A stretch of 10,252 nucleotides of DNA. Source: a virus (Duplodnaviria > Heunggongvirae > Uroviricota > Caudoviricetes). Below the pieces are notes generated by a model. It was not told where the DNA came from and ran no database searches. It worked only from the letters and a program-made list of their open reading frames with translations. The position numbers were made by a program, and so were the translations under genes. Location of the stretch: IMG/VR virus record IMGVR_UViG_2690316285_000005; one strand, given 5' to 3'. Positions 1-10,252 of this stretch are shown here, one piece after another; position 1 is the stretch's first letter; every line of letters starts with the position of its first letter.

Positions 1-149
1 ACTCGGTGGCCAGTTTTTGTTGACCACTTCACTACGGTTTAGGTTCGAACACTACGGATGTACCTCAGTACTCACCATCAGTACCTACGGGTAACAGCTT
101 CATCAAAGTACCATCATCTCAAGCAGGCAATCCTGCCGGGGCGGATCTG

Positions 150-2129
150 ATGGGAGTAGGGCTTGTAGATGGCACTACTGTAAGTTCTCTTGCGATGACA
201 AAGACGGGTACTCTAAGTATCTATGCAAAGAACGCTACAACCGCCTGGACACGCATATATACCGCTACACAGATGGACGGGCGATACGTACCCCTTACAC
301 GTACCATCAACGGCCATGCACTCACGGCCAATTTAGTACTGAACAGTGAAGATACAGGTTCAGTACCTGATACACGTACTGTGAATGGTAAGCCTCTAAG
401 TGAGGATGTAGTACTTACCAGTACTGATACCGGCTCTGTACCAGATACACGGACAGTTAATGGTCATGTACTCAGTGAAGATATAGTACTGAGTAGTGAA
501 GATACAGGTTCAGTACCTGATACACGTATGGTCAACGGTCATGTACTCAGTGAGGATGTAGTACTTACCAGTACTGATGTTGGCTTAGGGAAGGTTACAG
601 ATGATGCCCAGCTTACGATAGCAGGTAATCTAAGTGATCTGGGGGACGTGGAAGAAGCACGTATTAACCTTGCTGTTTACTCAATGGATGAAGTAGATGC
701 AGAGGTAACGGCTTTAGCTGACAGTATTACTTCCCTTGATTCCGCTTCCATGAAGAAAGCGAGTAACCTTTCTGATCTATCCAGTCTCTCTACAGCACGT
801 ACTAACCTACAGGTGAACCGTTTGACTCAGGGTGCTACGTACACCGATCTGATGAGTAATGACCTGACTAACCGTATCCGAATTCAGGATAACGGGGCAT
901 GGGGTGCAAGTACTGGTACTGGATGGATTGCTTTAGGTATAGGTCAGGGGGGGACAGGGGCTACAGATGCTTTGAGTGCTCGCCTAAACTTTCAGGTGGA
1001 TCGCTTTAATCAAGGTAGTAATTTAACAACTATTAAATCCGCTGATTCTTCCGCTGCATTAGTGGTTTATGATGGAGGGCAATGGGGTTCAGCTACATAT
1101 ATTGCGGGTGCTTTCACTGGCTGGAAAGCATTAGCAATTCCGCAGGGCGGTACTGGTGTTAAGACTCAGGCTGAGTTATGGCCTGCGATTCGTCCTACGG
1201 GTGCAACTTCTTTAGCAGGAGATCCTGTCTCTGATTCTGACGCGACTACCAAACGCTGGGTTGAAAACTTGCTGAGTAGTCGTACTTCAGTTAGTCCTCA
1301 ATGGGATGTTATTGCTTCTTCCCCTTCCTCTACGGCAATTGGTAGTTATGTAACTGGAGGGCGTATTCGTTCGATATGCAACATTGGTACATCAACTGAA
1401 ATATCTGGTGGTTTTCGGGTTGGTAAAACGATGGGACAGACTGGACAGGCTGATCTCACCCTTTTTATTTCTGAAAATGGTGCAGAGGATAAACTATGGG
1501 GGCTAAAAGGGCCGACTGGAACGATCCTAACTGATGTTCAATCAGGATGGATGACTAATACCGCTGTTTCGGGACCGACAGATGCCAATACCATCACCTT
1601 TAACGGTATGTATGCAGGGCCAGGTGACTCAGGTATTAACTATAGTGAAAAATATTCCCCTTTATTGCACATGCAAAGATACCCAGGGGCAAATCGCTCT
1701 CAGCTTCAGATAGACGGTGGTGGTACTTTAAGAGTACGAGGCGGGAACGGTACAACATGGTTTGGATGGTTAGTAATGCAAGCTCAAGGTACATCAGGTC
1801 GTGAGTTTAAAAGAGACATAACTCCAGCAAATCCAGTTGAAGCATTAGATCGGATAATGTCACAAGATTTAGTAACGTTTATCTACAAGGATGATGAACA
1901 AGAAAGGGTTAGGTTTGGTGTTATCGCCGAAGATGCTGAGTTGACTGCTCCGCAGTACATTAAGCATGATGAAGAAACAGTTGAAATAGAAGGGGAGATT
2001 GTCACTCGTGATCATCCACGTGTTGATTTAAATCCAATAGTGATGGACTTGATGGGAGCTATTCAAGCCCAACAAGAAGAAATTAATCAGCTAAAAGATT
2101 TAGTACAACAGCTATTAAATAATAAATAA
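150..2129 (+). CDS. Phage fiber protein (tail or neck/collar fiber) with tandem fiber repeats and a C-terminal intramolecular chaperone (peptidase S74-like) domain
   Basis: 659-codon ORF. Residues ~51-146 are four 25-aa repeats (consensus approx. RTVNGxxLSEDVVLTSxDTGSVPDT) typical of phage fiber repeats. The C-terminal ~110 aa (SGREFKRDITPANPVEALDRIMSQDLVTFIYKDD...GVIAEDAELTAP...) matches, from memory, the endosialidase/T5 pb1-type chaperone domain with its S-x4-K spacing. The ATG at 150 has only a weak SD, and the frame is open upstream to 24 with no start codon, so the true start is uncertain. Confidence 0.7.
   Translation: MGVGLVDGTTVSSLAMTKTGTLSIYAKNATTAWTRIYTATQMDGRYVPLTRTINGHALTANLVLNSEDTGSVPDTRTVNGKPLSEDVVLTSTDTGSVPDTRTVNGHVLSEDIVLSSEDTGSVPDTRMVNGHVLSEDVVLTSTDVGLGKVTDDAQLTIAGNLSDLGDVEEARINLAVYSMDEVDAEVTALADSITSLDSASMKKASNLSDLSSLSTARTNLQVNRLTQGATYTDLMSNDLTNRIRIQDNGAWGASTGTGWIALGIGQGGTGATDALSARLNFQVDRFNQGSNLTTIKSADSSAALVVYDGGQWGSATYIAGAFTGWKALAIPQGGTGVKTQAELWPAIRPTGATSLAGDPVSDSDATTKRWVENLLSSRTSVSPQWDVIASSPSSTAIGSYVTGGRIRSICNIGTSTEISGGFRVGKTMGQTGQADLTLFISENGAEDKLWGLKGPTGTILTDVQSGWMTNTAVSGPTDANTITFNGMYAGPGDSGINYSEKYSPLLHMQRYPGANRSQLQIDGGGTLRVRGGNGTTWFGWLVMQAQGTSGREFKRDITPANPVEALDRIMSQDLVTFIYKDDEQERVRFGVIAEDAELTAPQYIKHDEETVEIEGEIVTRDHPRVDLNPIVMDLMGAIQAQQEEINQLKDLVQQLLNNK
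300..587 (+). repeat. In-frame tandem repeat, 75-nt units (25 aa), about 4 copies, arranged as a 150-nt A-B super-unit duplicated
   Basis: Exact 34-nt identity between 345-378 and 495-528 (agtgaagatacaggttcagtacctgatacacgta) and exact 30-nt identity between 399-428 and 549-578 (agtgaggatgtagtacttaccagtactgat), both at a 150-nt offset. The protein repeats are in register. Confidence 0.85.
1794..2126 (+). other. Putative autoproteolytic intramolecular chaperone domain of the fiber protein (candidate catalytic Ser at codon 1794-1796, Lys at 1809-1811)
   Basis: The motif T-S-G-R-E-F-K followed by DITPANPVEALDRI...LVTFIYKDD...FGVIAEDAELTAPQYI resembles the S-D-x-R-L-K ... ALDKL ... GFIAQEVEEV pattern of peptidase S74 chaperone domains, recalled from memory. 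A coiled-coil-like tail (QAQQEEINQLKDLVQQLL) follows. Confidence 0.5.
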
Positions 2130-2137
2130 ATATAAAC

Positions 2138-2166
2138 GGGGTGAACGGATTCACTCCAATAAAATT
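2138..2166 (+). terminator. Possible weak intrinsic terminator or regulatory hairpin between the fiber gene and the major tail gene
   Basis: Imperfect hairpin GGGGTGAA-cgga-TTCACTCC (core stem gtgaa/ttcac, extendable with a G-U pair plus two G-C pairs), followed by an A/T-rich stretch aataaaattttctt. The T-tract is interrupted, so this is weak. Confidence 0.3.
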
Positions 2167-2187
2167 TTCTTATAAGGATATAAAACT

Positions 2188-2661
2188 ATGGCTATGGATA
2201 TTTTTTCCGGTGCTAACCTTACTGTAGAAGTAGGTTCAAGTGCTGGTAAAACAGTTGCTACTGACTTTGTAGAAGTACCAGAGGTAAACACCTTCAGTAC
2301 TTCAGGCTTTGAAAGTACTGTAATTAGCGTAAAAACATTCAATAATGCTTATGATCGTAAGCTATTGGGTACTAAGTCAATCCCGGACATTTCTCTTGCA
2401 GTTAACTACTTACCAGATAATGCAGTACATCAGAATTTAGAACAACTTGCAGACGATCAGAAACGTTGTCAGGTAAAACTAAGCTATTTTACCGATGCAA
2501 CTAAAAAAGAAGGTTTCTTTGTAATTTATACCTGCTTTGTTTCAAGTACCACTATCGGTGGTGATAAAGATGAAGTAGTAACTAAGACTTTCACCCTTGC
2601 AGTTGATGGTGAAGCAATTGATTCAGGTCTGATTACTCCAAAACCAGAATCGGGCGAATAA
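2188..2661 (+). CDS. Probable major tail (tube) protein
   Basis: 157-aa ORF with an AAGGA RBS about 9 nt upstream of the ATG. It sits immediately upstream of the chaperone pair and tape measure gene (conserved siphovirus synteny) and is followed by a strong terminator, consistent with a highly expressed structural gene. Acidic, Thr/Ser/Val-rich composition. The call rests on synteny and size; no motif was recognised. Confidence 0.6.
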   Translation: MAMDIFSGANLTVEVGSSAGKTVATDFVEVPEVNTFSTSGFESTVISVKTFNNAYDRKLLGTKSIPDISLAVNYLPDNAVHQNLEQLADDQKRCQVKLSYFTDATKKEGFFVIYTCFVSSTTIGGDKDEVVTKTFTLAVDGEAIDSGLITPKPESGE

Positions 2662-2669
2662 TAATAAAT

Positions 2670-2699
2670 AAAGGGAAGGTGCTCAACTTTCCCTTTTTT
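2670..2699 (+). terminator. Rho-independent terminator downstream of the major tail protein gene
   Basis: Stem AAAGGGAA (2670-2677) pairs with TTCCCTTT (2689-2696) around an 11-nt loop, followed by a T-run (ttttta), 9 nt after the stop codon. A partial terminator after the major tail gene is a common arrangement in siphoviruses. Confidence 0.6.
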
Positions 2700-2712
2700 A
2701 TTGGAGATGAAA

Positions 2713-3012
2713 ATGAATTTAAACGAATTGAAGAAAAAACTACAACCAGAATTAAAACCACATGAAGTAATGGGTGAAATCATCTTTATTCATCGTCCAA
2801 ATGGTCAGGATTTCCAGAAATGCACTGATGTGGCTAAAACTCTAATCCTATGTGTAAAAGATGAAAATGGTGATCCTATCTTCGCAGAAGAAGATATTGA
2901 TGGACGAATTAATGTTAACTCTATTGATTTTGTAATCCAGAATGAAATTTACTCAGCAATTATTGCTTTAATCAATACTGCGAAACCTGTAGATGAAGTA
3001 GAAAAAAAGTAA
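2713..3012 (+). CDS. Tail assembly chaperone (lambda G-like), the zero-frame product
   Basis: Small acidic ORF directly upstream of the tape measure gene. GGAG at 2703-2706 is 6 nt upstream of the ATG at 2713, which I prefer over the TTG at 2701 or the ATG at 2707. It ends at TAA 3010-3012 immediately after the slippery heptamer. Confidence 0.75.
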   Translation: MNLNELKKKLQPELKPHEVMGEIIFIHRPNGQDFQKCTDVAKTLILCVKDENGDPIFAEEDIDGRINVNSIDFVIQNEIYSAIIALINTAKPVDEVEKK

Positions 3013-3407
3013 GAGGTGATATCGAATTAAAGTACTTTTGTAAGATGGTTAACAAAAGAGGCTTATCACCTGAAGAATACTTTAGTTTAGATCCTGATGT
3101 ACTCAATATGCTTATGATCTACGATACTTTTATAGAACCATCCGGTACGCAGATTGAAATGATGAAACATGCGTACCAGTGTTACTACACCACTATCAGT
3201 AATGGCAACCTAACACCAGAAGCAAGGAAAAGTATCAAGGTACAGGATTTTGATTTTCTTGATGTGCTTAGTGATAGTACTAAGAGTACTTCAGAGAAAG
3301 CTGAAGAAAGAAAATTAAAAACTAAAGAGGCTCAATCCAATGATATTAAATCTATAGGGGAGTTAATTAAATCTCAGGTATTAGGAAAGAAAAAGAATGG
3401 CAAATAA
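2713..3407 (+). CDS. Tail assembly chaperone frameshift fusion (lambda GT-like), produced by a -1 shift at 3003-3009
   Basis: The upstream frame (start 2713, residue 1 mod 3) and the downstream ORF (3045-3407, residue 0 mod 3) are related by a -1 shift. The predicted junction reads ...VDEVEKK / VRGDIELKYFCKMVNKRGLSPEEY..., giving a product of about 231 aa. Its end overlaps the tape measure start (3397) by 11 nt. Confidence 0.65.
3003..3009 (+). promoter_or_regulatory. Slippery heptamer A_AAA_AAG for -1 programmed ribosomal frameshifting
   Basis: In the chaperone frame the codons are gaa-aaa-aag-taa. The heptamer A AAA AAG (3003-3009) is the classic dnaX-type shift site. The -1 frame is open from 2997 (a stop lies at 2994-2996) through 3407, and the downstream ORF has no SD before its first ATG at 3045. 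Confidence 0.7.
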
Positions 3408-5610
3408 TAATAGAATACGTGTAGATATTACGGGTGATTCTTCCGGTTTACAGCGTGCTTTAAGGTCTGGTACTGAATCATTAGAGGAATTTGGTAGTAC
3501 TGCTGGTGGCATTGTTGAAGAGTTCACAGGCCGAATAACTGGTATGGCTGGCGGGTTCGGTACTGCTATGACCGGGATCGCGGGTGCTGCGGCTATTGGT
3601 ATTGGTGGCCTGGCAGCATTAGTAGAATCATCACGTGAATATGTGCGTGAAATGAACCAGATCAGTAAGAGTACCGGATTGTCCGTGGTTCAGTTACAAC
3701 AGCTATCAGCGGCGTTTAGTGGCCTCGGTCTTGAGATTGATAAGTTTGGTGATTTCAACAAGGATACCTTGGATAAGCTCGGTGATGCTTTTCGTGCTGG
3801 CGGTGGTGTATCCGATGATCTTAAAGAATATGGACTCAACCTACAGGACTATAACAAGTACTTAAAACAGGCTGATGGTGGTATGCAGGCTGTGATCCAC
3901 ACCTTTTACGCCATGCGTGATGCAGGTAAATCACAGAGTGAAATAGTTAACGTAATGGAAACGTTAGCCAGTGACTCAAGCCACATGATTAGTACTCTTC
4001 AGCAGTTCAATAATGAGGCTCAAGCTACAGCCTATATCCAGTCACAAAATGCTGAAGTAACTAATGATGCTGCTGAAAAATATGCTGAATTCGATAAAAA
4101 CCTTGGGAAACTTACTACCAGCATTAAAGGTACTATTGCTGATGGCCTATCACCTTTAGTTAATGCCATGAACAGTGTCTATGATGCTGCAAATCAAAAA
4201 CCTCACGAGGCAGGTTTGTTTGAAGATCTGAATGAACGTATTAAAACTTCCAAGGGTTCTCTACAGGATATGTTGGATATCTGGGAAAAATTACGTACAG
4301 CAGGGGCATTAAACTACCAGGGTGCAGCACTCAATACTGGCATCATGGATGATAAGGGCAACAAGGGTAATGAGTTCGCTCAGGCTAAGGCACGTTTAGA
4401 AGAACTGGCAAACAACCTAAAGTCCGATGTTGCGGTTGCTACCGCTCCTACTGGCGGATGGGTTGATCAGGCAAAAGAAGCTGAAGATGCAGCGAAGAAG
4501 TTAGAACAACAACGTAAACAGGCAGAAGCGGCACAAAAGGCGGCAGATGCAAAACGCCTACAGGCTCAACGTAATCTGGAAGCTGCTCTTGCTCAAGTTG
4601 GGGAAGATGGTTTTCAGGTACGTCTACAGCAGTTCGACAGACAACAAAAGGCACTTCTTAAAACCATCACCGATAGTGCTCAAGTACTCGGTATCAATCC
4701 TGATGAAATGCTAAAGAACGCTACTGCATATGGTGCTAAACAACGTACTGATTTACTGAATTCAATGGTTGGTTATCAAGATCCTAATCAGGGTCTGAAA
4801 GATACCAATGCTCTTATTGGTTCCGGTCTACTCAATGACAATCAGAAGGGGTATCTGGCACAGCAACAGAATCAGCGTATCAATGGTGGTAATCCATTAG
4901 CCTATAACGATACCGATCAGAAGTTGAAAGATAACGCTGATGCTATGAATGCTGAACTTCAGCAGAATGAGTTGTTGCTGAAAGGCCATGAGGACTATGA
5001 GAAACGTAAAGCTGAGATCACGGCAAAGTACAATGCACAGGCCATCCAAATCAGTAACCAGAATGCACAGGATCAGTTAAGTATCTTCTCAAGTACTGCA
5101 CAGTCACTATCACAGGGCATGGTTGATGCGTTTGGGGAAAGTAGTGGGGCTGCACAAGCTGCATTTACCCTAAGTAAGAGCATAAGCATTGCACAGACAG
5201 TACTTTCAATTCAGTCAGCATTGGCCCAAGCACTCGCTACCCCTTGGCCAGCTTCATTGGCAAACTATGCACAAGTACTTTCACTTGGTATGTCGATTAT
5301 TAGTACTGCAAAGGGTGCTGCTGCTGGTCAGTTCCATGGCGGGGTAGATGAACTACCAGCAAGTTATGACAACAAATCATTTGTACTTAAGCAGGGCGAG
5401 AGAGTGGTGCAGCCTGAAGCGAATAAGAAATTAACAGCATTCTTGGATAAACAAGAAGGTGGAAGTACTTCAGGTGATATTACCGTTAACGCACCATTGA
5501 TCATCCAGGGTGATGTAGCTGATGATGACAAGAAATTTAATGAGATGCTTAAGAAACACGCCAATAGTGTTTCTCAAGCTGTGAGAAGTAGTCAAAAACG
5601 TAATACATAA
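3397..5610 (+). CDS. Tail tape measure protein
   Basis: 737-aa ORF immediately after the G/GT chaperone pair. It has a Gly/Ala-rich hydrophobic segment near the N-terminus (GMAGGFGTAMTGIAGAAAIGIGGLAAL), long Ala/Gln/Lys-rich, probably coiled-coil, stretches (EQQRKQAEAAQKAADAKRLQAQRNLEAALAQ) and a hydrophobic C-terminal region. This is the typical tape measure architecture. Confidence 0.85.
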   Translation: MANNNRIRVDITGDSSGLQRALRSGTESLEEFGSTAGGIVEEFTGRITGMAGGFGTAMTGIAGAAAIGIGGLAALVESSREYVREMNQISKSTGLSVVQLQQLSAAFSGLGLEIDKFGDFNKDTLDKLGDAFRAGGGVSDDLKEYGLNLQDYNKYLKQADGGMQAVIHTFYAMRDAGKSQSEIVNVMETLASDSSHMISTLQQFNNEAQATAYIQSQNAEVTNDAAEKYAEFDKNLGKLTTSIKGTIADGLSPLVNAMNSVYDAANQKPHEAGLFEDLNERIKTSKGSLQDMLDIWEKLRTAGALNYQGAALNTGIMDDKGNKGNEFAQAKARLEELANNLKSDVAVATAPTGGWVDQAKEAEDAAKKLEQQRKQAEAAQKAADAKRLQAQRNLEAALAQVGEDGFQVRLQQFDRQQKALLKTITDSAQVLGINPDEMLKNATAYGAKQRTDLLNSMVGYQDPNQGLKDTNALIGSGLLNDNQKGYLAQQQNQRINGGNPLAYNDTDQKLKDNADAMNAELQQNELLLKGHEDYEKRKAEITAKYNAQAIQISNQNAQDQLSIFSSTAQSLSQGMVDAFGESSGAAQAAFTLSKSISIAQTVLSIQSALAQALATPWPASLANYAQVLSLGMSIISTAKGAAAGQFHGGVDELPASYDNKSFVLKQGERVVQPEANKKLTAFLDKQEGGSTSGDITVNAPLIIQGDVADDDKKFNEMLKKHANSVSQAVRSSQKRNT

Positions 5611-5620
5611 GAAAGCCCAG

Positions 5621-6193
5621 TTAGGGATTTTCCGTGTGATAAGACAAATATTGTGAAAGAGAAGATGAAAGGGTATAGAGATTGTAATACTCTTCCCGCA
5701 ATAATTTAACTTTAGGTGGTGAGTATTTAATATTGTATGCAAGCTGTGTTGAAAGAGTACGTAATCTCGATAATGAATAATAACTCTTTACGATGGCATC
5801 TACTTCTTTTTTTGGGAGTGATGCTAATTTTTCTAATTGGGAATAATATACATCATCATGCAAATAAGAAACGGCAGTTGCTACTCTTTTAATAGCTTCT
5901 GTATCTTCAGTTGGAAGAGGAATACATATTTCATATGTGCCTAACACCTGAGACTCATCGCCACCAGTAGCAAGAGCTAAAAGGTTATTGTTGATTTCGC
6001 TCAATAAGATTACACGCATCTTAAAAACATCATCTGAACTTTCTTTCCATTTATCATATGCGTTATAGCCTATTTGGCCTGCAAATAACAACATAGCAAC
6101 GATGACGGATGCAGCCTGCCAATCAAGCCTGTTAAAAAAAATACGAATCGAGGTTTTTAAATAAATAAAGAAAGAAGATATTCGAGGTAACAA
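5621..6193 (-). CDS. Hypothetical protein, probably membrane-anchored; moron-like accessory gene encoded antisense to the tail operon
   Basis: The only long ORF on either strand in the 584-bp gap between the tape measure stop (5610) and the next tail gene (6195), and it fills the gap exactly. Read from the TTG at 6193 (an AGGA lies about 8 nt upstream on the minus strand) it gives 190 aa with a hydrophobic segment WQAASVIVAMLLFAGQIGYNAY near residues 25-46. The region is visibly more AT-rich than the flanking genes. The start codon is uncertain: the first in-frame ATG corresponds to 6094-6092 but would cut the hydrophobic segment. No known domain was recognised. Confidence 0.5.
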   Translation of the reverse strand: MLPRISSFFIYLKTSIRIFFNRLDWQAASVIVAMLLFAGQIGYNAYDKWKESSDDVFKMRVILLSEINNNLLALATGGDESQVLGTYEICIPLPTEDTEAIKRVATAVSYLHDDVYYSQLEKLASLPKKEVDAIVKSYYSLSRLRTLSTQLAYNIKYSPPKVKLLREEYYNLYTLSSSLSQYLSYHTENP

Positions 6194-6194
6194 A

Positions 6195-6752
6195 ATGGCA
6201 TCCTTTTCAAATCAAATAAAAGTAACGAACTTTCAAATTAAAAGTACTGAACCGATCTATTCTAATCAAACATGGACAGGTCAACGTATCATGAGAAGTA
6301 CTGGAATTCAATACTATCAAATTCAGTTCACCCTTAATTTTAATCCTGCATCACTAAATGAAGTGAATAGCTTTTTAGCTCAATATGCACAGGGCAAACC
6401 TTTCACTATGTCATTGGGGCTTGCAGGTACATATTACGGTAAACAGACTGGTGCAGTAACCGCTACTGCTCTCACTAAACCGGGTAATATGGTTGTACCT
6501 ATCAGTACTAACACATTAGCTGTGGGTGAGTGGGTACAGTTTTCCAATCACAATAAGCTATATCGAATCGTAGAACGTACCAGTACTTCAATTACTATTT
6601 TCCCTGCTCTACAAAATACAGTACAGGCAAGTGAAGCACTCAAATATAACAATCTCATGATCGAGGCTGTATTAGATCCAGACAATGATTATTCATTGCC
6701 TATTGGGAACATCATGAATATTACATTGAAAGCAACGGAGAATATCATCTAA
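6195..6752 (+). CDS. Minor tail protein, distal tail (lambda gpM-like) candidate
   Basis: 185-aa ORF, first gene after the tape measure gene in the + direction, with a GAGGT RBS 6 nt upstream of the ATG. The segment YYQIQFTLNFNPASLNEVNSFLAQYAQGKPF resembles the lambda gpM family pattern (..YSVTLS...LESFLEEHGG.KSF..) as I recall it. The stop overlaps the next start (TAATG). Confidence 0.5.
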   Translation: MASFSNQIKVTNFQIKSTEPIYSNQTWTGQRIMRSTGIQYYQIQFTLNFNPASLNEVNSFLAQYAQGKPFTMSLGLAGTYYGKQTGAVTATALTKPGNMVVPISTNTLAVGEWVQFSNHNKLYRIVERTSTSITIFPALQNTVQASEALKYNNLMIEAVLDPDNDYSLPIGNIMNITLKATENII

Positions 6753-7375
6753 TGGACTCAGGTATATATACTAATGCTAATCTTCTTAAGTACTGGAAGT
6801 TAGTCAGAGGTACAACCAAGACAAGATTAACACTAATGGAAATTATGAGCTTAGGCGTTAATGTTACTTGTTTTGATGTACTACCAAAAGGTACTAATGG
6901 TTTTCACTGGACGGATTCACTAATTGATATAGATCTGGATGGTTATAAGTACATAAGTTTCCCCGACATTATCAGTGGTTCATTACCTTCATATTCTGAA
7001 CAAAAGGGCATGTCTAATGATGCTATCAATTTTAAAATTAGCAATGTAAACGCCTCGGTTCGTGCTCTTGCCCTTGGTGGTTTCTTGAAAGATGCACAGA
7101 TGAATATCAAGTTAGTAATTCTCAATCCATATGATAGTACTGTAATTGATTCAATGCTCATGTTTACGGGGTTTATTGACTATGTACAGGCAGTAACTGA
7201 TCCAAATCAGAAGCAAAACGAAATGACTATATATGTGAATTCTGTCTATAAGAAATTAGACAGACAACCTGCATTAATTGCCGCCAACTCAGTATATCAA
7301 TCTTACTATAGAAATGATGAGTACTTTAGTCTGTTAGGTCAAGTTAATCAAAATCAGAACTGGAAATACAAGTAA
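6752..7375 (+). CDS. Minor tail protein (lambda gpL-like) candidate
   Basis: 207-aa ORF, translationally coupled on both sides through overlapping TAATG stop/start sequences at 6750-6754 and 7373-7377. The position matches lambda L. There is a loose resemblance to gpL in the region GYKYISFPDIISGSLPSYSEQKGMSNDAINFKISNVN. It lacks a Cys cluster. Confidence 0.5.
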   Translation: MDSGIYTNANLLKYWKLVRGTTKTRLTLMEIMSLGVNVTCFDVLPKGTNGFHWTDSLIDIDLDGYKYISFPDIISGSLPSYSEQKGMSNDAINFKISNVNASVRALALGGFLKDAQMNIKLVILNPYDSTVIDSMLMFTGFIDYVQAVTDPNQKQNEMTIYVNSVYKKLDRQPALIAANSVYQSYYRNDEYFSLLGQVNQNQNWKYK

Positions 7376-7779
7376 TGAAAAATCTACATAATGAAGTAAT
7401 GAGTATTATTCAGTACTCAATTGATAACCCATATAAGTATGGTGATAACGATTGCAACATTATAGTACTACGCCTTATTGATTTAATTAATGGTACTACA
7501 CAGTTAACTAATCGCCAGTATTCGAGCATTAAAGAAGGTATAGCAGGTTTAAACAAGGAAGGATGGAACCATACAGGGGAAATTGTTGAAGCGTACTGTA
7601 AGCCAGTACAAGCCACTATAGACGGTGATATCTGGTTAGATCCTGACAACCCATTAATTATGGCAGTAGTGGCATCTGGTCGGGTACTTGGAGTAAATGC
7701 TGATCATGATGGTTTCGAACTTCAACCAAAACCAACAGAGGGAACATATTACAGAGTAAGGAAACAGAGAGATGGGTAA
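7375..7779 (+). CDS. Tail protein with a putative NlpC/P60 (C40 peptidase) fold, resembling the C-terminal half of lambda gpK
   Basis: 134-aa ORF with the motif YKYGDNDCNIIVLRL (candidate catalytic Cys) and downstream GDIWL...VVASGRVLGVNADHDG (candidate His), resembling the gpK NlpC/P60 half (G.TDC...GDVLL...H). No JAMM/MPN motif was found. It overlaps the next gene by 8 nt. Confidence 0.5.
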   Translation: MKNLHNEVMSIIQYSIDNPYKYGDNDCNIIVLRLIDLINGTTQLTNRQYSSIKEGIAGLNKEGWNHTGEIVEAYCKPVQATIDGDIWLDPDNPLIMAVVASGRVLGVNADHDGFELQPKPTEGTYYRVRKQRDG

Positions 7780-10228
7780 GAGTTTAGGGGGCTTTTTTGG
7801 AGCCATAATTACGGCAGTTGTCGTCGCGGCTGCTGTGTACTTTTCAGGAGGTACAGCATTAGCAGCAATAGGTTGGGGTGCAGCAGCCGGATCTTTGTCA
7901 TTAGTTGCAAGTTCTATGTTAGGTCAAATCGGGGTTTCTGGATACGGTGATGTAGCAGACTCACTAAGTAGAAGTACTTCACCAACTACTGGATTACCCG
8001 TTATATACGGTGGAGAACTACCACATAAAAATGGTGTATCAGGCGGTTCCTTCATCCTAACCGGAAGCATAGTAGCCTGGTACAACGTACCAAATTCTGA
8101 TTCTCAGTACTTATTCTCAGAACAGGCTGTAGCATATGCTGGTGTAGAAAAGCATATCGAGCAAATCTATATTGATAATGAGCCAGTACTTGCAGTACCG
8201 ATTACAGCAGAGGGTGTAGTACCTAAAGAAAGTATTGCAGCGAAGTACCAGAACTATTTGCAATTAGAAGTACGATTTGGTGGTGACTATACGAGTACTA
8301 AAACTCTTGCTGCAAAATATGCTGGTTCGAAATGGACAAATAAATTTCTTGGTAAGGGTATTGTTAGTATCAGTACCGTTATCTTAAAAACTCAAGATTC
8401 ATTAGAAAATAATATTCTTGTTAATGATCAATTCGCTTTAACTGTAGAAATGAAAGGGCAGGTGATTTATGATTTTGTTGATGGTACTTATAAAGCAAGT
8501 AGTAACCCTCCTTCAATTATCTATGATTACTTAACAAATTCAATCTATGGTATGGGTATTGATCCATCATTGATTAATACCGATACGTTTGCAGAAACCG
8601 CAGCATATTGTGATGCTTTTGAATATTATGCTAATGGTGCTATCAGTTATCAAAAAACCTATAAAGATAATATTGAAAATATCTGTCAGTCATTTGGCGG
8701 CATCATGTATGTACATGCCGGACAAATCTGTATTACCACAGACCGCAAATCGGTATCCGTAGCCTCATTTGATGAGCGTAACATGGTAGGGGCGGTACAG
8801 GTTTCTACTTCTGGCGGTACTGACTACTTCAACGTAGTCGATTGCAAGTTTACTAACCCTGAATCGATGTACACCACTGACGTAGTACGTATCCCTTCCG
8901 ATATCACTACGGATGAAGCAGTACAGCATGATGGACAGGTCATAGCATTATCACGCGATTACTCATGGTCATATGATCAAGAGGTGATTGCAAAAATGGC
9001 TAACGTTGATGTACTCAAGGCTAAGTATGCCCTGCGTACTATCAGCTTCACCACAAGTGAAGGTTGGGATCTCGAAGTATGGGATGCGATCAATGTCAGC
9101 AATGAAGAACTCGCTATCTCAGGCAAATTTAAAGTACTCAATAAAGATATCAGCACCGATCAAGAGAACGTTGGCTATGTAACCATCACGGCAGTAGAAG
9201 CACCTGATGCAATGTATGATGGTATTGATCCGGGTATCTGGTCGCCTGGTGGGGTAATTAACTTCCCTGAACTACAGGTACTACCGCCAACGAACCTACA
9301 GGCAGTACGTAAGGGGAATACTACTTCTGGTTCAATCGTGGATCTTACCTGGGATGCTTCACCAGATCCGTATCTGCGTGGGTACTATGTTTACTACCGT
9401 CTTAACGGTTCCAGTACCTGGACGTATGCGGGGCAGACTGGCGTACAGAAGCTTGATTATGAATTATTTGGATTGTCTGATACTGCAAGCTACGACTTTT
9501 CGGTAGAGGCTTACAACAACTTAGGGCTGGTATCCAAGAAGCTTTCCCTAACTGGCATTGTTCCAACATTCAACTTTGCACTACCTGCGGTAACGCGTGT
9601 AGTACTGACAAATAAAACAGAATCAGCGTATGTAACTGACTCACCAGATTTCAATATTGCCTGGGATTCACAAAAAGATATCAGAGTGAATAACCGATCA
9701 TTTAGTGAGTACTTCAAGTATTACGTTATTAAAATCTATGACGGTACTAAATTAGTAGATACATTCTATACGCAAAGTAATGCCTTTAATTTCACTCTTG
9801 AAATGAACCGTCTGAAAGTACGTAAGCCTACCATTGGTATTATCGCACAGGGATTTAATGATGGTACATATTCAGAGGAAGTGAAAATAACCGTAGAGAA
9901 TAAACAGTGTGGTTTAGTAGAGGATGTTAGCTTTACGGGTGGTTTTGGTAATTTGTTTGCTTCATGGACTAAATCTACTGAACGTGATTATGCAGGTGCG
10001 ATTATCAGTATTGTTAATGGTACTAATACACGTATATTCACCAGTTATGCACCTGAATTTGATTCAATACCAAACATCACTGATGGTGAGTATAAGGTTA
10101 AGATGGGATTCTTTGATGTGTTTGGTACTGATGATATTCAATATTGTCCAGAACAAACAATCAGTATCAACTCCAAGTACCAGTTTACCGAAGATGATGC
10201 AGAGGCAATTAACGGGATTCTGAGGTAG
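7772..10228 (+). CDS. Central tail fiber / host specificity protein (lambda gpJ-like) with an N-terminal domain resembling the C-terminal part of lambda gpI
   Basis: 818-aa ORF. N-terminus GGFFGAIITAVVVAAAVYFSGGTALAAIGWGAAAG...LPVIYGGE resembles the Gly/Ala-rich hydrophobic C-terminal region of lambda tail assembly protein I. Segment SNPPSIIYDYLTNSIYGMGID...AAYCD (about 8500-8640) matches the conserved gpJ-family motif (NNMAWCLWDMLTHPRYGMG...QYCD). A fibronectin type III-like module (LTWDASPDPYLRGYYVYYRLNGSSTWTYAG...YDFSVEAYNNLGL) lies at about 9296-9550. Confidence 0.8.
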   Translation: MGKSLGGFFGAIITAVVVAAAVYFSGGTALAAIGWGAAAGSLSLVASSMLGQIGVSGYGDVADSLSRSTSPTTGLPVIYGGELPHKNGVSGGSFILTGSIVAWYNVPNSDSQYLFSEQAVAYAGVEKHIEQIYIDNEPVLAVPITAEGVVPKESIAAKYQNYLQLEVRFGGDYTSTKTLAAKYAGSKWTNKFLGKGIVSISTVILKTQDSLENNILVNDQFALTVEMKGQVIYDFVDGTYKASSNPPSIIYDYLTNSIYGMGIDPSLINTDTFAETAAYCDAFEYYANGAISYQKTYKDNIENICQSFGGIMYVHAGQICITTDRKSVSVASFDERNMVGAVQVSTSGGTDYFNVVDCKFTNPESMYTTDVVRIPSDITTDEAVQHDGQVIALSRDYSWSYDQEVIAKMANVDVLKAKYALRTISFTTSEGWDLEVWDAINVSNEELAISGKFKVLNKDISTDQENVGYVTITAVEAPDAMYDGIDPGIWSPGGVINFPELQVLPPTNLQAVRKGNTTSGSIVDLTWDASPDPYLRGYYVYYRLNGSSTWTYAGQTGVQKLDYELFGLSDTASYDFSVEAYNNLGLVSKKLSLTGIVPTFNFALPAVTRVVLTNKTESAYVTDSPDFNIAWDSQKDIRVNNRSFSEYFKYYVIKIYDGTKLVDTFYTQSNAFNFTLEMNRLKVRKPTIGIIAQGFNDGTYSEEVKITVENKQCGLVEDVSFTGGFGNLFASWTKSTERDYAGAIISIVNGTNTRIFTSYAPEFDSIPNITDGEYKVKMGFFDVFGTDDIQYCPEQTISINSKYQFTEDDAEAINGILR

Positions 10229-10252
10229 CCTGAGTTTAACGGACACTCCTTC

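Follow-up and report, generated by a model that had tools for sequence, protein, structure and literature searches.

An IS911-truncated fibre gene upstream of the tail tube gene of a Shigella sonnei-type prophage, and the probable tube-paralog anchor of its intact form

The primary host range of a siphophage depends on its side fibres, which are one of the main targets of engineering. Such fibres are known to be anchored either by a collar that surrounds the tail tube, as with lambda Stf and T5 p132, or by docking to Dit and baseplate proteins. Tube-like proteins also form minor adaptor rings, such as lambda gpM, T5 p140 and T4 gp48/gp54. Lambda gpM shares the fold of gpV's N-domain (PMC12617516). 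In Ur-lambda the trimeric side fibre hangs by linkers of ~10 residues from three monomeric N-terminal domains, and at the gpV-gpM junction these domains become part of a 12-mer collar (PMC12617516). T5 (p132/pb1) and DT57C (LtfC with LtfA/B) have a separate collar protein (PMC12617516). Adhesin domains are borne directly on the tube subunits in SPP1 gp17.1* and in the MTP-TpeX of the 936 group (PMC8718954, PMC4759559). The 936 group also has nps, a non-essential gene for a fibrous appendage that lies just upstream of mtp and whose product was located at the neck by immunogold (PMC4759559). Here we consider a stretch of 10,252 nucleotides (nt) of viral DNA, the IMG/VR record IMGVR_UViG_2690316285_000005, which we call the window. 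On its + strand a fibre-like open reading frame (ORF) of 659 amino acids (aa) at 150-2129 is followed by the tail tube gene at 2188-2661 (157 aa). We argue that this ORF is what IS911 left of a longer gene, and that the intact gene encodes a paralog of the tube protein with a fibre attached, so that the fibre would be built into the tail tube itself. As a whole this is the explanation we consider best, and we regard it as probable.

The ATG at nt 150 is an internal Met codon of a gene that was stripped of its first 160 codons by an IS911 insertion. The frame is open upstream of it back to nt 24, with an in-frame stop at 21-23 and no in-frame ATG, GTG or TTG between that stop and nt 150. The codon must be internal because nt 33-2126 match an intact 883-aa protein from residue 161 on. 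The translation is identical at 698/698 aa to residues 161-311 plus 337-883 of that protein (locus L008, 6124-8775). The 3' remnant of this tube-paralog::fibre gene runs from 33 to 2129 on the + strand (698 codons and a stop) and holds intact residues 161-883 minus one 25-aa repeat. Its DNA is 98.5-100% identical to loci L004, L005 and L008. Positions 1..31, at the contig edge, are the terminal bases of the truncating element. The 30-mer there is identical to the insertion sequence (IS) ends in L003, L004, L006 and L007, and the IS has 99.7% identity to annotated IS911. At the junction IS911 reads ...CCACTTCA and the fibre gene continues directly with CTACGG. One can imagine that the open frame before ATG150 reflects a translational frameshift or a fusion with an upstream gene, but nt 1-31 are IS911 and we reject this. 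An earlier note on this DNA described a repeat-containing 659-aa fibre with a chaperone domain, encoded just before the tube gene. The ORF, the 75-nt repeats, the Peptidase_S74 domain and the 59-nt adjacency all stand, but the gene is not complete. The window copy is a non-functional pseudogene remnant, and the prophage that holds it, which is of the Shigella sonnei type, is riddled with ISs and in decay. It must be noted that ORF callers will list such IS-truncated remnants as complete fibre genes.

The missing part is a relative of the tube protein. The earlier note took the 157-aa ORF for the tube protein, and this holds up well. It matches Pfam PF08813 Phage_tail_3 at 34 bits (cutoff 24.2) and phrog_158 'major tail protein' at 5.8e-19, and the tail assembly chaperone pair comes next, which identifies 2188-2661 as the tube gene by synteny as well. 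The collection lists a 100% identical protein in 551 blocks. This short tube protein aligns with residues 3-139 of the intact 883-aa protein at 31% identity (E=6e-21), and residues 2-150 of the intact protein match phrog_158 in their own right (E=1.3e-16). The tube-like domain is absent from the 150-2129 ORF because residues 1-160 lie upstream of the IS911 junction. When these residues are searched against the window by tblastn the sole match is the short tube gene, at 2197-2601. A profile search of the domain against PDB sequences gave no match, and neither did a search of the long protein against NCBIfam.

The fold was modelled with AlphaFold2 (AF2) on P0002, a 49%-identical relative of the S. 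sonnei-type protein. The pLDDT is 72-95 across most of residues 11-150. Among the PDB structures that Foldseek matched to this model, the top 22 are without exception tube proteins, from siphophages or from a phage-tail-like bacteriocin, and they include lambda gpV (8k36, TMt 0.69), NF5, YDC107, 80alpha, Sf11 and monocin. Matches of the P0002 domain in BFVD, which holds predicted viral structures, are likewise tube proteins. On this relative the model has the siphophage tube fold, a beta-sandwich with a helix and a long beta2-beta3 hairpin, and the N-terminal domain of the S. sonnei-type protein probably shares it. Both paralogs have the N-terminal DIFxG arm and the beta2-beta3 hairpin, in colinear positions and with equal lengths. 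Arms of the DIFxG type and the hairpin regions are the inter-ring contact elements of known tubes (PMC8718954). Both tube domains are strongly acidic, with a median net charge of -13 for the tube-like domain and -9 for the tube protein. These traits are in keeping with a duplicated domain that can still work as part of a tube.

The earlier note took the gene position to suggest a neck or collar whisker. The tube paralog at the N-terminus offers another reason for this position. The tube gene with its Shine-Dalgarno (SD) context spans 2174..2661 (+), with AAGGATATAAA upstream of 2188-2661. The long and short genes have this ribosome-binding context, AAGGATATAAA, in identical form. Shared SD context and paralogy together point to a tandem duplication of the tube gene, and the fibre gene would adjoin the tube gene because it arose in that way. 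On this evidence we read the intact gene as a copy of the tube protein gene fused to a long receptor-binding fibre, and its position as reflecting duplication and a built-in anchor. A position explained by duplication is no evidence for a neck whisker. The 883-aa protein has a ~150-aa tube paralog, a ~95-aa adaptor, the 25-aa repeats and shaft, a variable distal region and the S74 chaperone, in that order. The fibre extension beyond the tube-like domain is ~730 aa.

The adaptor joins the tube-like domain to the shaft. Its remnant in the window is 33..287 (+), which corresponds to intact residues 161-245 and contains the motifs GNSFIKVP and TAWTRIYT. The adaptor (~95 aa) is kept in all long paralogs, with a mean pairwise distance of 0.32 vs 0.46 for the tube-like domain; in the AF2 model of P0002 its confidence is low (pLDDT 42-68). 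The shaft has 75-nt (25-aa) tandem repeats at 351..578 (+), 3.0 copies of the unit TGSVPDTRTVNGHVLSEDVVLTSTD. From a comparison with L004, L005 and L008, the 883-aa allele contains 4 full copies, an 808-aa allele from another strain has three fewer, leaving 1, and the window has 3. This variation among close assemblies could be real variation in shaft length or the collapse of repeats in short-read assembly. The presumed receptor-binding tip is the distal part at 1203..1793 (+), about aa 352-548 of the ORF, and its closest counterparts are siphophage fibres, from phages of E. coli and Salmonella. ORF aa 352-659 have 47% identity to Escherichia phage SDYTW1-F1-2-2_3 (tblastn against phage genomes). 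The distal part also matches DT57C LtfB and the lateral tail fiber of GeorgBuechner, and the 659-aa ORF has many PHROG 'tail fiber' matches. The fibre thus has its matches among coliphage lateral tail fibres, those of T5-like phages included.

The Peptidase_S74 intramolecular chaperone is encoded at 1794..2126 (+) and matches PF13884 over aa 550-598 (34.5 bits, Pfam cutoff 22). This region also matches PDB 8hqz_d, the 'L-shaped tail fiber assembly' of DT57C, at E=1e-40. An S-x4-K-x2-I motif is present as SGREFKRDI (S549 and K554 in ORF numbering), and it aligns with the family consensus SDxRxKxxI in an alignment of 29 members. The catalytic role of the S...K motif is established for endoNF-type chaperones. 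We infer trimerisation and self-cleavage from this domain. The tube-like domain has a GC content of 36%, which rises to 44-50% across the adaptor, the shaft and the distal region and drops back to 37.5% in the chaperone domain.

Relatives were sampled with the N-terminal 245 aa as the query, which gave 38 IMG/VR contigs and 6 genomes (Scandinavium, Pluralibacter, Buttiauxella, two Phytobacter species and Enterobacter). Candidates for an intact prophage copy among the genomes are those of Scandinavium lactucae V105_6, Pluralibacter gergoviae ATCC 33028 and Phytobacter diazotrophicus DSM 17806. Every complete locus among these 44 relatives has a long protein of 793-1243 aa followed by the short tube gene. 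The gap between the two genes is 40-70 nt, or ~300-430 nt when a small extra ORF intervenes. In intact loci the gene order is 107-aa and 130-aa connector genes, long gene, tube gene, chaperones, tape measure. The unusual placement that the earlier note pointed out is real in this sense, as the order recurs in about 40 related enterobacterial prophage loci, which represent a lineage of temperate siphophages. Peptidase_S74 is found in 23/29 long paralogs scanned. Downstream of one long paralog without it comes a small ORF whose product is similar to a tail fibre assembly protein. A HMMER search of 1.84 billion representatives found 104 clusters (50% identity) at E<=1e-30, nearly all of 600-1560 aa and with the match starting from residue 1. 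The anchor is conserved among relatives and the C-termini are variable or exchanged, which is the usual pattern of a receptor-binding protein. Among 50,697 deposited phage records only one, Escherichia phage DCP80, has a tube-paralog fibre gene. The Vibrio phages henriette 12B8 and V6Aob, which have the nearest tube proteins, have a standard layout with no long paralog.

A sister group, DCP80 and the prophage L057, has the tube-paralog anchor and the distal fibre on two proteins, the second being gp36/gp37-like. The DCP80 anchor matches the DCP80 tube protein at E=8e-11. A metagenome locus, L010, is also split, into an anchor of 240 aa and a fibre of 1049 aa. We do not count it as a natural two-gene form; with the fibre frame open across the junction, a frameshift of 1 nt or an error in sequencing is the likelier cause. 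The L057/L058 locus (GCA_030411295.2 CM130045.1, 7001-15128) encodes a 375-aa anchor, an 845-aa fibre and a 156-aa tube protein, then DUF6950 and J-like genes. Genes for the chaperones, the tape measure and the distal tail protein are missing from it, and it is either a deletion derivative or a tail that does without a tape measure. DCP80 (L001, PQ671644.1; 141 kb) is filed under Straboviridae/Gaprivervirus. Its first 22 kb are a lambda-like siphophage structural module related to the window prophage, with a GpA-type terminase, a protease::capsid fusion, tube, tape measure and J. The classification or the assembly of DCP80 may be wrong.

How does this locus compare with the described systems? 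The long protein is like gp17.1*, MTP-TpeX, lambda gpV with its Ig-like domain and T5 pb6 in having an N-terminal tube fold and an outer adhesion module on one polypeptide. As in the gp17.1*/MTP-TpeX group, a mix of plain and extended subunits is possible. In gp17.1*, MTP-TpeX and gpV-C the major subunit itself carries the extension, one small domain of the Ig, FN3 or CBM kind, which is either constitutive or added by frameshift. Here, in contrast, the long gene is a separate paralog, 31% identical and always beside the short tube gene, and its extension of ~730 aa comes with repeats, shaft, tip and an S74 trimerisation chaperone. By analogy with the Stf-N, p132 and LtfC collars, monomeric ring-forming domains would be tied to a trimeric shaft by short linkers. 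The Stf-N and p132 collars, however, are 12-mers of a non-tube fold that sit around the tube, whereas an anchor that is a tube paralog implies a ring within it. Searches of Pfam, PHROG and PDB sequences found no Stf-N or p132 collar homology in the long protein. Its gene also lies upstream of the tube gene and not, as for Stf and p132, after the tip genes. The likeness to gpM is that of a second tube-fold protein specialised for one tail position, but none of gpM, p140 and gp48/gp54 bears a fibre, and their genes stand among the tip genes that follow the tape measure gene. Like the 936-group NPS the long protein would be a fibrous appendage encoded just before the tube gene, but there is no sequence similarity and the NPS proteins have no tube domain. 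The long gene would combine adhesin-bearing tube subunits with ring-anchored side fibres, the anchor itself being the tube subunit. We rate the family as a variant of these two. No description of a tube-paralog::fibre fusion was found in the literature searched, of which the coverage was partial and which is no proof of novelty.

The following route is the one we propose. The fibre part would trimerise, aided by the chaperone domain. The tube-like N-terminal domains, on flexible linkers, would then enter the tube as subunits, which would leave the fibre covalently built in and not docked. Six tube-like domains would make up one ring bearing two trimeric fibres. These fibres would give reversible primary adsorption and the J-like tip protein would do the committed binding. 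No fibre gene was found downstream of J in the intact copies, so the long protein would be the only side fibre of these phages. Tube incorporation, copy number and axial position of the long protein are all parts of this proposal. In its full form the proposal is a dedicated ring of six tube domains with two complete trimeric receptor-binding fibres and no docking protein at a collar or baseplate, so that the 6:3 mismatch is solved within one gene product. This stronger version is a serious candidate that we are nearly as ready to believe as to doubt.

The place of such a ring along the tail is a separate matter. In mirror-tree comparisons the pairwise distances of the tube-like domain correlate with those of the distal tail protein at r=0.82 and with those of the 130-aa terminator-like protein at r=0.68 (bootstrap difference 0.13, 95% confidence interval 0.05-0.22). 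The value for the short tube protein is r=0.73. This covariation leans weakly to the distal tail protein as the neighbour of the ring. A distal site would also suit what is probably the sole adsorption fibre of the phage. Anchorage by a ring of the collar type, in the broad sense of the term, is what we favour, and more probably at the distal than at the head-proximal end. That the dedicated ring adjoins the distal tail protein is a tentative placement, and we would not be surprised to see it overturned.

Several points weigh against the proposal and its placement. The 107-aa head-tail protein gives r=0.79, which is indistinguishable from the distal tail protein value, and the mirror-tree signal as a whole is weak and confounded by shared module history. 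The tube fold rests on the relative P0002, and the adaptor is modelled at low confidence only. We know of no tube protein for which a trimer on a six-fold ring has been observed. By colinearity, a long gene between the connector and tube genes would fit a head-proximal ring. T5 p140, which forms a tube-like distal ring, is encoded after the tape measure gene. The same is true of the tube-like distal ring protein gpM of lambda (PMC12617516 for the gpM fold). Finally, the long and short genes have equal ribosome-binding sites and no terminator is called between them, so no sequence mark sets the long protein apart as a minor component.

This last point fits another scenario. The long paralog could co-polymerise with the short tube protein at many positions and give a 'hairy' tail with scattered fibres. 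No outcome of a tube gene duplication would be simpler. The N-terminal arm and hairpin are retained, the SD contexts are equal with no terminator called, and mixed adhesin-bearing tubes are known from SPP1 gp17.1* and 936 MTP-TpeX (PMC8718954, PMC4759559). The tube-like domain is, however, the fastest-evolving tail component, with a mean pairwise distance of 0.46 vs 0.27 for the short tube protein. This distance, and an identity of 31% between the paralogs, are unexpected if all interfaces have to stay compatible with the major subunit. The known extensions are also small Ig, FN3 and CBM domains and not 700-aa trimeric fibres that would link three subunits. We consider scattered decoration unlikely, though it is the strongest of the rivals to a dedicated ring.

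The neck or collar whisker of the earlier note can be restated in terms of the tube paralog. The long protein would be the last head-proximal ring, under the terminator, and its fibres would project like those of 936-group NPS or T4 fibritin. If so they would be the first tube-integrated neck fibres. The neck-appendage-type position between connector and tube genes is found in all intact loci, where the long gene follows the 107-aa and 130-aa connector or terminator-like genes. Siphophage structural gene order is usually colinear with position in the virion. The 936-group nps, upstream of mtp, was mapped to the neck by immunogold (PMC4759559), and a fold search with the 130-aa protein gave weak matches to terminator and neck proteins. 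On the other side, duplication already accounts for the gene position, and in the distance comparisons the tube-like domain follows the distal tail protein more closely than it does the 130-aa protein. None of the neck appendage families (936 NPS, T4 fibritin, phi29 gp12) was matched in Pfam, PHROG, NCBIfam, PDB or phage-genome searches, and all matches of the fibre are to lateral or side tail fibres. The neck is a poor site for the sole primary adsorption fibre of a tail that we estimate at ~110 nm from the 737-aa tape measure. A ring added only at the end of tube growth also requires an extra control step. The TP901-1 parallel originally offered for a whisker is inexact. In TP901-1 the neck passage structure gene (ORF51) comes after bppL, where the structural module ends, and not just before the major tail gene (PMC4493119). 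In the searches named above the fibre resembles neither neck-passage proteins nor fibritin nor the appendages of phi29. We find a neck location quite improbable.

Lastly, a fibre cassette recombined upstream of the tube gene in one strain by chance, a mosaic (the earlier note allowed for one) or annotation artefact without functional meaning, would suit the GC jump along the long gene, the clearly exchanged C-termini and the pseudogene state of the window copy, but it is extremely improbable, as the fusion, with the short tube gene beside it, is kept at about 40 loci spread over six or more genera, the family has about 100 protein clusters at 50% identity, and the arrangement recurs in the split-fibre sister group (DCP80, L057).

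If a fibre is anchored by its own tube subunit, this would be a third anchoring solution beside collars and docking. The family has a clean modular boundary between a conserved 245-aa anchor and an exchangeable fibre. It also provides a natural system in which to ask what steers a tube paralog to a single site within a helical polymer. The current labels, 'tail fiber' or 'major tail protein' (phrog_158), each fail to describe tube-paralog::fibre genes.

The rest of the window is a siphophage tail module on the + strand, as seen from ORF calls, Pfam and PHROG. The tail assembly chaperone pair is at 2701-3407 (+), with a G-like ORF at 2701-3012 and a -1 frame extension through 3045-3407. A slippery site, A_AAA_AAG at 3002-3008, directly precedes the TAA of the 103-aa chaperone ORF and is a canonical -1 signal. 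The -1 frame is open from 2994 into a 120-aa ORF, which gives a tail assembly chaperone pair of the G/GT type. The tape measure gene follows at 3397-5610 (+; 737-aa product). The distal tail protein gene is at 6195-6752 (+), and the genes of a 207-aa protein and a DUF6950 protein come next. The J-like central fibre gene is called at 7772-10228 (+; 818 aa), and its gene part, 7772..10221, is truncated at the 3' end by a second IS. The stop codon of this ORF comes from the IS end at 10222, and the intact form has 1100 aa with a Phage_Tail_Tip C-terminus. The 818-aa ORF is an artefact of the IS insertion.

Between the tape measure and distal tail protein genes lies a reverse-strand ORF (5621-6193, -) of 190 aa with a hydrophobic N-terminus. 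Its sole match is phrog_3829, of unknown function, and it is kept in most related S. sonnei-type copies. It looks like a moron-type insertion. A terminator-like hairpin of 11 pairs followed by a T-run, the sole such site that the scan called, is found at 2670..2696 (+), immediately 3' of the tube gene. The 59-nt spacer between fibre and tube genes contains an 8-bp GC-rich hairpin at 2138..2157 (+), GGGGTGAA-CGGA-TTCACTCC, which has no T-run and is uncalled by the terminator scan. Outside the window, at L008 3531-5375 and in relatives, the major capsid protein is fused to an N-terminal Peptidase_S78 prohead protease (614 aa), and this fusion is lineage-wide.

The window is the entire contig CXDI01000144.1 of assembly GCA_001250495.1 (10,252 bp), with an IS end at either edge. 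From nt 31 to 10221 it is 98.5-100% identical to prophage DNA in chromosomes of ~5 Mb, e.g. HE616528.1, and in that prophage one neighbouring protein is annotated as Shigella sonnei. No copy turned up when complete E. coli genomes were searched at the DNA level. A megablast of the whole window against the 50,697 phage records has a sole match, 44 nt at the 3' edge, which is the IS end. The terminal bases of this second, multicopy IS are 10222..10252, at the other contig edge. E. coli genomes contain the 32-mer from the window end as many as 43 times each, at a distance of ~33 nt upstream from a partial transposase gene.

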